DNA of 64,000 bases from a bacterium. Its GTDB lineage: Bacteria > SAR324 > NAC60-12. Where the stretch lies: assembly GCA_965233585.1 (NCBI GenBank), contig CBDDTI010000746.1, positions 128,001-192,000 of the forward strand. Reading direction: 5' to 3'. The position numbers were made by a program, and so were the translations under genes. Below, piece by piece: positions 44,884 to 60,764 of the stretch. The notes below the pieces were generated by a model. That model was not told the DNA's origin, made no database searches, and saw only the letters and a program-made list of their open reading frames with translations. How positions within the stretch are numbered: position 1 is the stretch's first letter; every line of letters begins with the position of its first letter.

Positions 44884-45160
44884 CTGACAACATTTTTAGA
44901 CACTCACTGACTTAAACCCCTTAGCATAGTGGATTCAATAGATTTTTTTCAAAAAAACTCCAATCAATCAGATTTTTCTCAAAACTCTAACTTTTTCTGA
45001 CCTTCCAACCTGTCTATTTTCCAATGTTCTAAAAAATCTTAAAAACTCCTTAAATTTTCTTCAAAATCCTGCATCTTTGAGGTTTTGGAAGGTTTGATAG
45101 TTATCAAAAGTGGCAGAAGGCATCATTCATTTTTTGAAGAAAGTGAAACACTTCGTCCCT

Positions 45161-45217
45161 CCGTCATTGCTCACCTTGTCCGCAATCTCATTCTTCTTAA
45201 AATACAGGACAAACTAC
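45161..45217. repeat. Deleted copy of the 59439-59533 palindromic repeat unit, abutting the lipoprotein A stop codon
   Basis: ccgtcattgctcaccttg..ccgcaatctcattcttcttaaaa(t/c)acaggacaaac is shared with 59439-59514. Confidence 0.85.
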
Positions 45218-46317
45218 CTCCCAAACTTGATTAAAAGCATGTCCTCATTTCCTGAATTGGTGTGTCCATCAAAATTTCCTCCAGAGAATCCTGTCACGTA
45301 AACATTGCCTGCTGAATCCACACTCACTCCCTTTCCTGCATCACTACTGGTAGTGCCAAGCAACTTAGACCTTTTTTTGACACCTGAAGTATCATACTTG
45401 ATTAAAAATATGTCAAAGTCTCCTGAATGGGTCTTTCCATCAAAAGCTCCTGAAGAGCTTCCTGTCACGTAAACATTGCCTACTGAATCCACACTCACTC
45501 CATTTCCTGCATCACTACTGGTAGTGCCAAGCAGTTTTGACCACTGCTTGTTGCCTGAAGTATCATACTTGATTAAAAACATATCCTTACCTCCTGAATT
45601 GGTCTGTCCATCAAAGGCTCCTGCAGAGAATCCTGTCACGTAAACATTGCCTGAAGCATCCACACTCACTCCATGTCCTCTATCATCACCGCTAGTGCCA
45701 AGCAGTTTTGACCACTGCTTGTTGCCTGAACTGTCATACTTGATTAAAAACATGTCCTCTTTTCCTGAATTGGTCTTTGTATCAAAAGCTCCTTTAGAAT
45801 ATCCTGTCACGTAAACATTGCCTGCTGAATCTACACTCACTCCTAATCCGTCATCACGAGATCGACTGCCAAGCAGTTCAGACCATTGTTTAGCCAAGTG
45901 TTCAGCAATGGCTTGGTTGTGGCAAGCCCATTCAGAAGCAGAAGTCTTGCCTGATGCTTTCACACGAACGCAGAGTTTGTCTTTGGCAATGGCATCATCT
46001 CCAAAACTAAAAGGGCTGCTGCAATCAGTAGGAGTTGTGCCTCCATCTTTGGAACATTGATAGCTTTGCCCTGAAGTGGTGGCAAAGGTCAAGGTTCTGC
46101 CTGAAATAGCAAGAGAAGTTGGCGGCTTTGGTGGCTTGGTAGCTTCAGCAGTGTTGTCATCTGATGGACTACGTTTGTCAGTGCAAGAAACGAGGACACT
46201 GAGACCAAGCAGGACTGAACATTTCTTCAAAGAAGAAGGTTTAAGAAATGATGCAAAAGCATCGGTGCAGGCAACAAGTGCTTTGATAAACGTTTTGATT
46301 GTATGACGTGCAAACAT
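45214..46317 (-). CDS. Surface lipoprotein A: extended signal, Cys module, 4 SBBP beta-propeller repeats
   Basis: Lipobox LVSC at residue 45; repeats GVSVDSAGNVYVTG...DMFLIKYDxSG; GGAG RBS. Confidence 0.88.
   Translation of the reverse strand: MFARHTIKTFIKALVACTDAFASFLKPSSLKKCSVLLGLSVLVSCTDKRSPSDDNTAEATKPPKPPTSLAISGRTLTFATTSGQSYQCSKDGGTTPTDCSSPFSFGDDAIAKDKLCVRVKASGKTSASEWACHNQAIAEHLAKQWSELLGSRSRDDGLGVSVDSAGNVYVTGYSKGAFDTKTNSGKEDMFLIKYDSSGNKQWSKLLGTSGDDRGHGVSVDASGNVYVTGFSAGAFDGQTNSGGKDMFLIKYDTSGNKQWSKLLGTTSSDAGNGVSVDSVGNVYVTGSSSGAFDGKTHSGDFDIFLIKYDTSGVKKRSKLLGTTSSDAGKGVSVDSAGNVYVTGFSGGNFDGHTNSGNEDMLLIKFGR
45225..45890 (-). repeat. Intragenic tandem repeat, 4 x 171 bp (57 aa)
   Basis: cctgtcacgtaaacattgcct recurs at 45290, 45461, 45632, 45803. 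Confidence 0.92.
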
Positions 46318-46486
46318 TTGATGGACTCCATTTAGAGGTTAGATAAAAAAACAACATTCAACACAATGAATGTCGTCATGGTAAAACTCTTGGTTTGAAA
46401 AAAAACATCATCTGATTTTCAAGGAAAAGAGTTGAATAAAAACCAAAGCTATACTATGCAAGTACAAAAAAAAAATACAAGCCACG
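46318..46486 (-). promoter_or_regulatory. Poly-T promoter and two-hairpin leader of lipoprotein A
   Basis: ggcTTGTA-T10-gtacttgCATAGT, then two hairpins and GGAG; homologous to 55569-55736. Confidence 0.65.
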
Positions 46487-55035: not shown

Positions 55036-55159
55036 AACTCCCATAATTTTTGACCTTCAGCCTATTCATTTCCCTAGTTTCTTCACTTTCTGATTCCCCC
55101 TTTGGTGAAGGTGTGCTTGCCTTCAGCAAGTAGGGTGTTTTTTTCGTTACCACACAACC

Positions 55160-55354
55160 GTCATTGAGGGCTTGACCCGCAATCTCTCTTGTCTTTTTCT
55201 CACTTCCCCGTCATTGCTGACCTTGAAAAAAGTCATTGCGGGACCTGACCCGCAATCTCTCTTTTATTTTTTGAGATTCCGCATCAAGTGCGGAATGACT
55301 GAGAGGTTTTGTAGGCGTGTCTTTTCGTCATTGCGGGACCTGACCCGCAATCTC
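55160..55354. repeat. Cluster of GTCATT-headed palindromic repeats (REP/dRS3/RPE-like)
   Basis: gtcattgcgggacctgacccgcaatctc at 55232 and 55327, variant at 55160, inverted unit gattccgcatcaagtgcggaatgac at 55275. Confidence 0.9.
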
Positions 55355-55568
55355 CCTTGTTTTTTCACAATAACCCTCATCTTTCCTGACCTCCCAATCT
55401 GCTCCTTTTTTCCTTTTTTTGAAAAATCTTCAAAACTTTTTAAAACTTTTTAAATTTTTTTCAAAACCTTTCAAACCCTTATCTTTTCTGACTTCCTGAC
55501 CTTCCTCTTTTTCCAAAAAATCTTTAAAATTCCTTAAAAAACTAAAAAATGACCCAAAAATTAAAAAC

Positions 55569-55736
55569 GTTGGCTTGTTTTTTTTTTTTGTACGTGCATA
55601 ATGCCCGTTTTGGCTTTTCGCAAAACTCTCATCTTGAAAACAAATGAGGTTTTCATTTCAAGAGGGGAGTTTTTCGTGTGACAGCACCCGCAGGGGGTGC
55701 TGTTGTTTTGTTTCATCTCTCATTGGAGTTAATCAA
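55569..55736 (+). promoter_or_regulatory. Poly-T promoter and two-hairpin leader of lipoprotein B
   Basis: ggcTTG-T12(55578-55589)-gtacgtgCATAAT; hairpins 55622-55673 and 55680-55704; GGAG at 55725. Confidence 0.65.
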
Positions 55737-58700
55737 ATGTTTGCATTTCGTACGATGAAAGTGTTCCCCAAAGCACTTGTTGCCCTCACCGATGCTTTGG
55801 CATCATTCCTCAAACCTTCTTGCCTTAAAAAATGCTCAATCCTGCTTGGCGCCAGTGTTGTGATTGGCTGCGGTGAAGATGGTGCTGTGTCAGTGTCAGC
55901 CAAACACACTGCCCAGACCAAGCCAGAGTCAAGCGAGTCTGTGTGTCTGGAGATTCCCCAAGCCCTGACGCAAGGCACAGGCAACCTTGCCGTCTTCAAT
56001 TCACTGGGTCAAGATGTCCTGCTGTCGTATTCCAGCAAGCTGAATACAGATGATGTGCTTGCCGTCATTGGTGCCAAGCAAAAAGGGGTCAAAGTGGACA
56101 TTTCCAAAAGGACTTCTTCCATCGTCACCTTGTTCGCCTTCAAGATGCCAGCTGTCCAAGACTACTTTGAAGCAGACTGCGATGATTCCCAAATGCCAAC
56201 GGCTTTTATGCAGAGTGGGTTCATTCCATCAGCCAAATCCAGTTTTGTGATAGGCACTAAAGAATCCAAGTCAGACTATGGCATGTTGCTGGTGCGAAAC
56301 AATCGTGATGAGAAGGTGTCTATTTTTCAAGGCAGTTCGCAGAATCAGCAAATTGGCGTCATTGCCAGCAAGGAACTGGACTACCGAATCAAGATTCCTG
56401 TCGGTGCTAGACTGCTGATGTTTTACCCACACACAGATTCAGGAGAGATTGACTTCCAAAATCCTGTCCTTGTGAAGAACCTAGTCTTTAACAAAGATGA
56501 CAAAAAACGCATCATCATTCCTGAACAACAAGTCTTGAGCGTGGCAAAAATCAACTTTACTAATTCTTCTGACCAAGATGTGATGCTGACCGTGAAGAAC
56601 AGTGATGAGGCGTTGTTTAATGTAGAATGCAGTTGTGCAGATTTTAACAAAAATTCTGTGTCAGCCAAGATGATTCTGGTCAATGGAAAGTATTATGCTG
56701 ATGACTTCTTCTTTTCTGTCATTAGTTTAGACACAGGTCAAACTTTGATTCGGAGTAAGCCTTTTCAGCTGGACAAAAACACGAATGTGAATTTTACATT
56801 GAACAAGAATTTGACGCTGACGAAGGGCTTGGTCAATGCCGTTGTTGCGAAGAATCAAGAGCCAGAGAAGCCAGAAGACTTGAAAATCAGCCAAGTGACC
56901 TCTAATAGTTTGCAATTAAGCTGGTCGCCTTCTGCAGACGCTGATGGCGAAGTGACAGGTTACGAAGTCTCTCACAAAACAGGCAATGGAAACTGGCAAG
57001 TCGGCACAGACACCACTCAAACAATCGTCATCGTCTCTGGTTTGCAACCTGCCACTGCCTACACCTTTCGTGTCCGTGCCAAAGATGATGAAAATGCTTG
57101 GAGTGATTATGAAGAAAGCAAACCTGTCCAGACGCTTCCTGCTGCCAACAAACCACCTGAAAAACCCAGCAACATCAGCACCAGCGATGTCACTGCAGAC
57201 AGCATCAAGGTCTCATGGACTGCTGCCACAGATTCTGACGGACAAGTGACAGGCTACGAAATCTCTTACAAAACAGGCAATGGATTCTGGTCAGGCACAA
57301 GCACGACAGCCAACACGGCATACACCTTTCAATCGCTGCAACCTGCCACCAGCTACACTTTCCGCATTCGTGCCAAAGATGATGACGGAGATTGGAGTCC
57401 TTACCAGACAAGCACCGCTGTCAGCACTGCACCCAATGCACCAACTTCCCTTGCAGTGTCTGCCAGAAGCCTGACCTTTATGATGACTTTAGGCAACAGC
57501 TATGAATGTTCCAAAGATGCAGGCACCACAAAAACCAACTGCAACAGCCCCTTTAGTTTTGGTGATGATGCCATTGCCAAAGACAAGCTGTGCGTCCGTG
57601 TCAAAGCATCAGGCAACACTCCCGCATCAGACTGGGCTTGCTATGACCAAGACATTGCTCAAAAAACTCCTGCTGTCAGCCAAGCAGTCACTTGGAATTT
57701 TGACAACGGCAACAAGCCAAATGGCTTAACAGGCAACTGGTCTGTTGTCTCTGGTGGGGCAAACAGCACTTCCAAAAGCCTCAAATCTGCAAACATTGGC
57801 AGCAATCAACAAACCTGCGTCCAAACCACACGCAATGTCTCAGCAGGAGACGTGGAATTTCAATACAAAGTCAGTTCAGAACAAAATTATGACGAACTCT
57901 TCTTCTACATTGATTCTTCAGAAAAGCTAGGGGGCAAAAGTGGAAACATCGGCTGGACACAAGCCAGCTATGCTGTCTCGGCTGGAAGCCACACCTTCAA
58001 ATGGTGCTACAAAAAAGACTATGCCCTCAGTGAAGGAGACGATGCCGCTTGGATTGACCAAGTCAACTTTCCAGACTCTTCTGCTGCCTCCCATGACTTC
58101 TCCAAATACACTTGGAAAGAAATCAAACCCAATGACAACACAGGCTGGTCTAAACGTTGGGGGCATACCAGCGTCGTTTTTAACAACAAAATCTGGGTAA
58201 TTGAAGGTGATGTCTGGAGTTCTGCTGATGGTCAAACTTGGACTAAAGAGACGAGCAATCCTGGCTGGTCTTGGCGTATTCGTCATACAAGCGTTGTTTT
58301 TGATAATAAAATCTGGGTGCTGGGGGGAACTGATAGTCCTAAAAACGATGTCTGGAGTTCTTCTGATGGCAAGAATTGGACTAAAGTCACTGCTTCAGCA
58401 GATTGGTCTAATCGCAGAGAGCATAGCAGCGTTGTATTTAAGAACAAAATCTGGGTGCTGGGAGGATGGTCTAACACTCACAAAAACGATGTCTGGAGTT
58501 CTTCTGATGGCAAGAATTGGACTAAAGAGACGAACAATGCAGGCTGGTCAAAACGTTATTCACATACAAGCGTTGTCTTTAACAACAAAATTTGGGTGAT
58601 TGGAGGAGGTGTAGGGAATGGAATTGTCAAAAATGATGTCTGGAGTTCTTCTAATGGAACAACTTGGGAAGAGCATAAGATTCCATCAGGCAAGACCCGT

Positions 58701-59351
58701 TGGTCTTCAAGGGAAGAACATAAAAGCGTTGTGTTTGATGGCAAAATCTGGATTCTTGTGGGAGATGGTATTGGATTTCACTACAACGATGTTTGGAGTT
58801 CTTCTGACGGAGCAAACTGGACAAAAGTCACTGATTCAGCAGTCTGGATAAAACGTCGGCAACATAGCAGCGTTGTATTTAATGATAAAATCTGGGTGCT
58901 GGGTGGATATGATGGTTCTAGCAGAAACGATGTTTGGGCATTTGGTCCTCCGTCTTCTCAAATTTGGAGTTTTGAGGACAATAAAAAGCCTAGTGGTTTG
59001 AGTGGCAACTGGGCTGTGGTCTCTGGTGGTGCAAGTGGCAGTTCCAAAAGCCTTAAGTCTGCAAGCATTGGCAATAATCAAGAGACTTGTGTCCAAACAA
59101 CGCAAACCGTTTCCAACGGACAAATCAAGTTTCACTACAAAGTGAGTTCAGAACGAAGGTATGACAAACTCTTCTTTTACATCGGGTCTTCAGAAAAGCT
59201 AGGAGGCAAAAGTGGAACGATTGCTTGGAAGCAAGCCAGTTTCAACGTCTCTGCTGGAAGCCACACCTTCAAATGGTGCTACAAGAAGGACAGTTCCGAC
59301 AGCGAAGGAAGAGATGCCGTCTGGATTGATGACGTCCAGTTCCCACAATAA
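55737..59351 (+). CDS. Large surface lipoprotein B: extended signal, unknown N-domain, 2 FN3, Cys module, beta-sandwich, 6 Kelch-like repeats, beta-sandwich
   Basis: Start at 55737 by homology to lipoprotein A and RBS; lipobox VIGC; FN3 LQPATxYTFRxRAKD x2; WSxRxxHxSVVFxNKIWVxGG..NDVWSSxDG x6; duplicated domain of about 128 aa. Confidence 0.88.
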   Translation: MFAFRTMKVFPKALVALTDALASFLKPSCLKKCSILLGASVVIGCGEDGAVSVSAKHTAQTKPESSESVCLEIPQALTQGTGNLAVFNSLGQDVLLSYSSKLNTDDVLAVIGAKQKGVKVDISKRTSSIVTLFAFKMPAVQDYFEADCDDSQMPTAFMQSGFIPSAKSSFVIGTKESKSDYGMLLVRNNRDEKVSIFQGSSQNQQIGVIASKELDYRIKIPVGARLLMFYPHTDSGEIDFQNPVLVKNLVFNKDDKKRIIIPEQQVLSVAKINFTNSSDQDVMLTVKNSDEALFNVECSCADFNKNSVSAKMILVNGKYYADDFFFSVISLDTGQTLIRSKPFQLDKNTNVNFTLNKNLTLTKGLVNAVVAKNQEPEKPEDLKISQVTSNSLQLSWSPSADADGEVTGYEVSHKTGNGNWQVGTDTTQTIVIVSGLQPATAYTFRVRAKDDENAWSDYEESKPVQTLPAANKPPEKPSNISTSDVTADSIKVSWTAATDSDGQVTGYEISYKTGNGFWSGTSTTANTAYTFQSLQPATSYTFRIRAKDDDGDWSPYQTSTAVSTAPNAPTSLAVSARSLTFMMTLGNSYECSKDAGTTKTNCNSPFSFGDDAIAKDKLCVRVKASGNTPASDWACYDQDIAQKTPAVSQAVTWNFDNGNKPNGLTGNWSVVSGGANSTSKSLKSANIGSNQQTCVQTTRNVSAGDVEFQYKVSSEQNYDELFFYIDSSEKLGGKSGNIGWTQASYAVSAGSHTFKWCYKKDYALSEGDDAAWIDQVNFPDSSAASHDFSKYTWKEIKPNDNTGWSKRWGHTSVVFNNKIWVIEGDVWSSADGQTWTKETSNPGWSWRIRHTSVVFDNKIWVLGGTDSPKNDVWSSSDGKNWTKVTASADWSNRREHSSVVFKNKIWVLGGWSNTHKNDVWSSSDGKNWTKETNNAGWSKRYSHTSVVFNNKIWVIGGGVGNGIVKNDVWSSSNGTTWEEHKIPSGKTRWSSREEHKSVVFDGKIWILVGDGIGFHYNDVWSSSDGANWTKVTDSAVWIKRRQHSSVVFNDKIWVLGGYDGSSRNDVWAFGPPSSQIWSFEDNKKPSGLSGNWAVVSGGASGSSKSLKSASIGNNQETCVQTTQTVSNGQIKFHYKVSSERRYDKLFFYIGSSEKLGGKSGTIAWKQASFNVSAGSHTFKWCYKKDSSDSEGRDAVWIDDVQFPQ
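58140..58945 (+). repeat. Six intragenic Kelch-like repeats
   Basis: Six copies of H.SVVF..KIW..G followed by DVWS/DVWA. Confidence 0.9.
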
Positions 59352-60005: not shown

Positions 60006-60764
60006 GGTATTGTTAAACTATAAGTGATATGCGATATTAAGTTCATTTAATTGAATTGATAGTCATGGTGTAGCAATGAAGTCGTGTCCTAGATGTGAAA
60101 GTGAGAAGACGGTTAAGAATGGTTTTTTATATGGTAAACCGAGGAGGCGTTGCAATGCCTGCAACTATCAATATACCAAGTCCTATCGTGGTCAAATCTC
60201 ACCACAGATCAAAAGAAGAGCATTAGAGTTGTATTTGGAGGGTCTTGGTTTCAGGTCAATCGGTCGTTTGCTGAATTGTTCTCATGTTTCAGTTTATAAT
60301 TGGGTCTGTAGTTTTGGCGAACAGCTCAAGGCATTAAGAAAGGACACAGACATTGAAATTATGGAAATTGATGAAATGCACACCTACATCCAGTCAAAAA
60401 AACTACTGCTGGCTCTGGATTGCTGTTGATAGATGTGGGAAGCAATTTATCAATTGTGTGCTTGGAAACAGAGACTCAAAAGCCTGTAGGCATTTATGGG
60501 ACAAGGTCAAGGAAACAAAACCTCTTCAGGTGATGACTGATCACTGGAAGGCTTACAAACAAGTCATTCCCAAAGAAATTCATACATGTTCCAAGGCAGA
60601 AACATACACGGTAGAAGAGTATAATTCTCTCTTGAGACATTTCTTGGCAAGAATGAGAAGGAAAACCAAATGTTACAGCAAGTCTCTTAAAGCATTACAA
60701 TATTCTGTTCTTTTGTTCATGGCAAAACGGAATAATCAGCTATCACTTATTAATTAACAATGCC
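60006..60764 (+). mobile_element. IS1-family insertion sequence, apparently complete
   Basis: IRs ggtattgttaaactataagtgata / ggcattgttaattaataagtgata (20/24); InsA with CPRC..CNAC zinc finger and HTH (60076-60429); InsB (to 60757); A7C slippery site 60396-60403. Confidence 0.93.

Follow-up and report, generated by a model that had tools for sequence, protein, structure and literature searches.

The 5' untranslated region of E. coli ompA, an mRNA stabiliser, has a two-hairpin layout, and the classic stabiliser hairpin of the ompA type is 5'-terminal. Terminators in other leaders are relieved by antiterminators of the BglG/LicT or ANTAR type or by NusG paralogues. Surface variation driven by slippage is best known from pathogens. 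According to PMC10502178, every vlp promoter of Mycoplasma hyorhinis holds a homopolymeric A tract, and the promoter spacer of vmm in M. mycoides holds a dinucleotide repeat. Phase variation is defined by high rate and reversibility in PMC11868660. For Helicobacter pylori sabA, PMC2715451 describes a promoter poly-T tract (13-19 T) together with a coding CT repeat, with variation measured within strains.

Here we present an analysis of two stretches of a 64,000-nucleotide window (the whole stretch of DNA analysed), namely 46318-46486 on the minus strand (A) and 55569-55736 on the plus strand (B). Both are copies of a cassette that precedes 17 related lipoprotein-type genes in an uncultured SAR324-like bacterium. 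An earlier note on this DNA had described them as colinear leaders of two lipoprotein genes and had quoted the arms of two hairpins; both stretches are present as described and colinear, and the arms are correct in A and B. The two open reading frames (ORFs) are of lipoprotein type by their lipobox pattern, and comparison of the proteins revealed related N-termini, each with a lipobox-like cysteine. The similarity of A and B is due to paralogy, as 17 copies stand before related genes. A slippery promoter combined with a structural two-hairpin leader, spread and reshuffled by recombination, is the best explanation overall, and we consider it, narrowly, probable.

Source genome and copies of the cassette

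The assembly comprises 12.0 Mb, of which five large gene-dense contigs (2.92 Mb) were treated as the bacterium. Sparsely coding contigs that contain long homopolymers make up 7.8 Mb and are likely co-binned eukaryotic DNA, despite the contamination figure of 2%. The FtsH encoded in the window shows 63-67% identity to SAR324-type records, the next group yielding 57% or less. The bacterium may be host-associated. The features of the two copies are as follows.

55536..55567, + strand: A-rich stretch 5' of the B -35 box, UP-element-like in its sequence
55570-55575, + strand: B candidate -35 box TTGGCT, predicted spacer 21 at T12
55575-55580, + strand: B candidate -35 box TTGTTT, overlapping TTGGCT, predicted spacer 16 at T12
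55578..55589, + strand: B poly-T tract T12 in the promoter spacer, candidate slipped-strand switch
55597..55602, + strand: B predicted -10 hexamer CATAAT, a hexamer shared with the rRNA promoter of the genome, with almost identical bases after it
55609..55736, + strand: B predicted 5' untranslated leader, about 128 nt, its start placed 7-8 nt past the -10 box
55622..55673, + strand: B hairpin 1, long stem with an A.G mismatch and a variable loop
55680-55704, + strand: B hairpin 2, 10 bp, about -18.4 to -19 kcal/mol, terminator-like
to 55713, + strand: tail of B hairpin 2, G/U-rich, U run broken by G
55725..55728, + strand: B GGAG, Shine-Dalgarno-like site
55737..59351, + strand: B ORF, lipoprotein-type (lipobox by pattern), 1204 aa, two fibronectin III domains and Kelch repeats
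46451..46480, - strand: A predicted promoter, -35 box TTGTAT (46480-46475)
within 46451..46480, - strand: A predicted -10 options, CATAGT (spacer 16) or TAGTAT (spacer 18)
46466..46475, - strand: A poly-T tract T10 in the promoter spacer
46385..46433, - strand: A hairpin 1, weaker, -8.5 kcal/mol
46350-46377, - strand: A hairpin 2, 11 bp, about -12.5 to -12.8 kcal/mol, site of most compensatory changes
to 46345, - strand: A T run directly 3' of hairpin 2
46326..46329, - strand: A GGAG, Shine-Dalgarno-like site
45214..46317, - strand: A ORF, lipoprotein-type, 367 aa, SBBP beta-propeller repeats, ATG at 46317, N-terminus related to that of B

The order reported previously (hairpin 2, U-rich run, GGAG) holds in both copies, with the qualification that the tail in B is interrupted by G. 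Copies of the A type have a second T run (6-8 T) on the 3' side of hairpin 1 (window 46398-46405, - strand), which also differs in length among paralogues. REP-like palindromic repeats are abundant beside the A and B genes (window 55150-55360 and 45160-45215), with a pile-up of read depth there. An element of two ORFs, IS-like by appearance, lies 3' of the B gene (window 60076-60757), and a near-identical IS-like element at C746:53100-53780 truncates the lipoprotein at C746:52362.

The collection of paralogous leaders that had been suggested as a check yielded 17 full copies in the genome, all on contigs C745-C747, with agreement between iterated nhmmer and a covariance model. Fifteen of the 17 precede ORFs with a signal-like segment and a cysteine; regarding the other two genes, one is frameshifted past its signal and one has no start. 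The cargo domains vary and include fn3, Kelch, SBBP and Lcl_C in a Pfam scan of 17 ORFs drawn from the 29 promoter loci described below, four of which gave no match at 1e-5. The copies are mosaics in which types of upstream flank, of hairpin 1, of hairpin 2 and of start region are combined in different ways, which suggests recombination among paralogues. Recombination between copies would spread and reshuffle the cassette.

Cassette DNA was not matched in any of 40 relatives, nor was the covariance model in any of 60 relatives (stricter filters, 71 candidates scored per genome), nor the N-terminal 370 aa of the B protein in any of 87 other genomes of the phylum. Two metagenome matches to the promoter pattern were attributed to chance: the loci are unrelated, and the matches lie in or against their coding regions. 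A two-hairpin leader at C746:634000-634300 was not matched by the covariance model and is therefore at most analogous.

Predicted promoter and poly-T spacer

Conservation across the element is highest in CTTG-N0-2-T(n)-GTAC-N3-CATAAT/CATAGT. Positions 55569-55602 are predicted to form a sigma-70 promoter with a poly-T spacer, transcription starting near 55609. The leader as delimited in the earlier note thus stands from about 55609 onwards, whereas 55569-55602 would be promoter DNA without leader RNA. The poly-T spacer, which lies inside the coordinates of that note yet was missed there, is the likeliest candidate for a feature regulating the genes. The promoter layout was found at 29 loci, 17 with the two-hairpin leader and 12 with other leaders. 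By lipobox pattern, 28 of the 29 precede lipoprotein-type genes, two of them broken, and at 28 of 29 a run of T7-T12 lies between TTGnnn and the -10 hexamer (both boxes as predicted).

The rRNA promoter of the genome ends in CATAATGCTCGTTT, and the CATAATGCCCGTTT of B resembles it. Across upstream regions of the whole genome, the spacer between TTGnnn and TAnnnT peaks at 17 (212 sites vs 99-136 at other lengths). Using a promoter matrix derived from the genome (99th percentile of shuffles 12.4), the top score of 16.6 was obtained for the paralogue at C746:391591, which has an interrupted tract (TTGCCT-17-TAGCAT). The B promoter scores only 2.3 and the B-type copies are poor as a group, partly because the seed demanded a T, and hence no C, as the first base of the -10 hexamer. 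A generic promoter scan called neither the A nor the B promoter. In B-type copies another -35 candidate lies 5 nt further upstream, for which the spacer would be 17 at T8. A spacer of 17 in any register is present at only 4 of the 29 loci and one of 16-18 in some register at 24, while spacer 16 (CATAAT-type register) recurs across diverged families with differing tract lengths; the recurrence of spacer 16 and the 24 loci at 16-18 also fit selection for a fixed working promoter.

The 2.92 Mb of bacterial contigs contain 597 runs of T8, 43 of T9, 14 of T10, 3 of T11, 7 of T12 and 1 of T13. Promoter context holds 18 of the 25 runs of at least 10 T, including all seven T12, as against 129 of 9608 runs of 6-8. 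With at least 10 T, the promoter pattern was counted 19 times in the assembly, 18 times on the bacterial contigs and once on a small one, whereas the 63 other members of the order that were searched have 0-1 each. Four B-type copies carry T12, T12, T11 and T10 although they are identical over 36 nt on the upstream side of the run and 60 nt on its downstream side, and another pair with identical flanks carries T12 and T10.

In a separate lipoprotein family, a poly-G run lies behind the start codon and ahead of the signal peptide; of the 16 members, 7 are in frame and 9 are truncated at 18-22 aa. Its members are located as follows.

C747: 406675, 432679, 434423, 436962, 440851, 517914, 984995, 987182, 990624, 993898
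C746: 50591, 321993, 325691, 328176
C745: 43705, 319764

The excess of T runs in promoters, the differing tracts within identical flanks and the parallel poly-G family argue for slippage; MutL, which is encoded in the genome, counts against it. Replication slippage would alter the length of the poly-T spacer at the predicted sigma-70 promoter, and a changed tract would move the -35/-10 spacing into or out of the 16-18 window, tuning each paralogue up or down. We regard it as fairly probable that slippage in the T run alters this spacing and hence the output of each paralogue.

Contigs from four runs (at most three samples from one study, possibly including the source) support the assembled tract lengths as real. 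The A tract is T10 in the run X1 contig, as assembled. At the B locus each of the four runs has a contig one T shorter, best explained as the T11 paralogue C747:157215. Among the matches listed for the four contig sets (depth 3-5), no within-locus length variation was seen beyond the assembled paralogue alleles.

These observations also bear on an alternative account, which we consider improbable. On this view the promoters are ordinary and constitutive with a T-rich spacer, changes in tract length accumulate by drift once a copy has arisen and serve no adaptive switching, and gene conversion among paralogues takes the leader along. Modules shuffled between copies are what recombination would give, the tract length per locus agrees between runs where visible, spacer 16 is common across families, and the compensatory changes in the leader (see below) come from few lineages; long T runs are, however, scarce elsewhere in the genome and yet are kept in promoters of unrelated lipoprotein families. 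The excess of the pattern over the 63 other members of the order, pairing in the leader beyond the tree-aware null and the parallel poly-G frameshift family likewise speak against drift, and slippage at the promoter remains the preferred reading.

Related promoter sites were observed in other settings. A T7-spacer promoter followed by a lipoprotein signal lies in frame at C745:64830 and C747:471114 within long lipoprotein ORFs (C745:61777-66795 and C747:469458-472946), by which one gene could yield a long and a short lipoprotein; similar T7-spacer sites are found at C745:227481 and C295:233601. Promoters of the same kind with T11-12 are located at C747:368019, C747:820226 and C745:128650. Their predicted leaders of 460-810 nt are packed with REP-like palindromic repeats and close with a hairpin and a U run at about 30 nt from the ATG.

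Folding and possible role of the two-hairpin leader

The predicted leader of about 130 nt would fold into two hairpins acting as a fixed structure and not as a ligand switch. The B fold was more stable than those of shuffled sequences (z -3.59, 0/200), whereas the A fold yielded z -1.57 (16/200), or z -2.25 for a 150-nt cut, a weak signal. The claim that both hairpins covary is borne out for hairpin 2, at 4 of its 10 pairs; hairpin 1 is paired, but its covariation does not exceed that of shuffles.

Regarding hairpin 2, 95.9% of 170 cells pair, four of ten pairs change on both sides, G.U intermediates are visible, and the covariation score was reached by 0 of 500 shuffles; slid controls were 41-72% paired. 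Against a tree-aware null (14 of the 17 copies, three near-duplicates being left out), pairing was 0.95 vs 0.75 (1/2000) and the four double changes had p about 0.037, figures to be read with the structure having been chosen on sequences also used to test it and with the compensatory changes coming from few lineages. Hairpin 2 thus covaries modestly.

Regarding hairpin 1, 86% of cells pair and pairing was 0.91 vs 0.72 under the tree-aware null (0/2000), while covariation was found in 1 of 16 pairs and matched by shuffles in 305 of 500 cases. Its loop length differs among copies. It begins about 13 nt past the predicted start site, and this position just downstream of the start, together with the single covarying pair and a count of seven G.U as against seven A.C states, is what one would see if hairpin 1 were an operator in the DNA, an inverted repeat bound by a repressor, and the RNA function were confined to hairpin 2. 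This is very unlikely, as the spacing of the two arms differs by several bases from copy to copy and the repeat is about 50 bp long; a loop of variable length is easier to reconcile with an RNA hairpin than with a DNA operator.

As reported earlier, the leader resembles no known riboswitch consensus: a search of the window against Rfam yielded nothing at gathering score, and the 17 and 3 generic sub-threshold matches at E up to 10 were not near the cut-off. The lack of an Rfam match, the cis position and the terminator-like end would suit a new ligand-sensing riboswitch or thermosensor, a reading that we nevertheless find barely credible, since the invariant bases lie mostly in stems, the loops are variable, no switch fold was found, the element occurs in one genome only among 61 searched, and the downstream genes, judged from their sequences, encode surface proteins and form no metabolic pathway.

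A generic scan called hairpin 2 terminator-like on the sense strand in both A and B. By a formula after d'Aubenton-Carafa, 11 of the 17 copies pass on the sense strand, 6 fail, and none passes on the antisense strand. Hairpin 2 is unusual for its position: of 302 divergent gene starts (family members included), 10 are preceded by a hairpin of -12 kcal/mol or better, 3 of them with a T-rich tail, as compared with -18.4 in B and -12.5 in A. These results favour a scheme in which hairpin 2 is a true intrinsic terminator, placed on top of the promoter tract and relieved by a trans-acting protein on hairpin 1; the conservation of hairpin 1 without covariation, as a protein-binding site could show, and the presence of CsrA and Rho also count for it. 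The 6 failing copies and the tails broken by G count against it, as does the lack of the alternative fold that it would use: blocking the 3' arm of hairpin 2 carries a penalty of about 4-17 kcal/mol, with 15 for B and 11 for A, and with that arm forbidden no mutually exclusive antiterminator fold was conserved across the copies. The genome (92% complete) encodes one NusG only and gave no match to CAT_RBD, for which the control worked; an ANTAR search was blank, and so was its control. We consider this scheme unlikely.

Two further candidates in the leader were rejected. A leader peptide is not conserved: the ATG in the hairpin 1 loop is absent in 3 of 14 aligned copies, has no evident ribosome-binding site and opens differing frames. 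The word TGATCTTT, found in the rRNA leader and spacer of the genome and taken by us to be Nus boxA-like, is only partly matched in hairpin 1 of B and is matched by no A-type copy.

The previous description of a structured cis-regulatory leader therefore survives in part. The leader is structured, its second hairpin is terminator-like and pairing is kept across paralogues, whereas a regulated attenuator is not supported: neither a conserved alternative fold nor a conserved leader peptide was found, the genome as assembled has a single NusG and no CAT_RBD match, and 6 of 17 copies fail the terminator score. A stable hairpin some 30 nt ahead of the ATG likewise closes leaders of other lipoprotein genes that are unrelated in sequence, and its repeated appearance speaks for a structural role rather than a specific switch. 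One unrelated leader, at C745:293161-293377 (- strand), has the same plan (long hairpin, short hairpin, about 30 nt, start) without a U tail. The hairpins would protect the long mRNA, and hairpin 2 may be a leaky terminator that passes part of the polymerases. A protective or dampening role is somewhat likely, as against regulated attenuation, which is doubtful. A composite mechanism appears decidedly improbable; in it, the poly-T tract slides the -10 box between two -35 boxes and so chooses among paralogues, while a protein-binding hairpin 1 and a terminator hairpin 2 gate all of them via an antitermination factor in a host-associated SAR324 lineage.

Comparison with known systems

No literature joining SAR324 with phase variation was found, most subscription papers lying outside the search. 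The mechanism itself is already known, and the leader RNA is an uncatalogued motif of a single genome among those searched, probably structural. If real, the arrangement would give a SAR324-like bacterium two lipoprotein contingency systems, one of poly-T promoters and one of poly-G frameshifts, which would point to host contact or phage pressure.

With the systems of BglG/LicT, ANTAR and NusG-paralogue antiterminators the cassette shares a hairpin resembling a terminator, placed after the promoter and before the start codon; unlike in those systems, no overlapping antiterminator fold, CAT_RBD match or second NusG was found here. The ompA 5' untranslated region is comparable as well, without any claim of homology: the gene encodes an envelope protein, the leader is about as long, and it too contains two hairpins, linkers of single-stranded RNA and a ribosome-binding site. 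Here, however, hairpin 1 stands away from the 5' end as predicted, and a U-rich tail follows hairpin 2.

The promoter resembles that of sabA, but here the tract has 7-12 T, sits in the predicted -35/-10 spacer and varies between paralogues only. The likeness to vlp and vmm extends to a multigene lipoprotein family with a repeat-bearing promoter of its own for each gene, shared N-termini and variable C-terminal parts. The differences from vlp are the poly-T tract, the 29 dispersed loci, the fn3, Kelch, SBBP and Lcl domains and the two-hairpin leader at 17 loci; no sequence relationship is expected. Switching is proven for vlp, whereas here it is suggested by variation seen between paralogues only. 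To judge from these sequence features, the cassette appears to work like vlp-type promoter phase variation and shares three of its five defining features: a repeat between the predicted -35 and -10 boxes (28 of 29 loci), a repeat that is over-represented (18 of 25 long runs) and more mutable than its flanks (T12, T12, T11 and T10 in identical surroundings), and genes that, by lipobox pattern (28 of 29) and domains, would encode surface structures.
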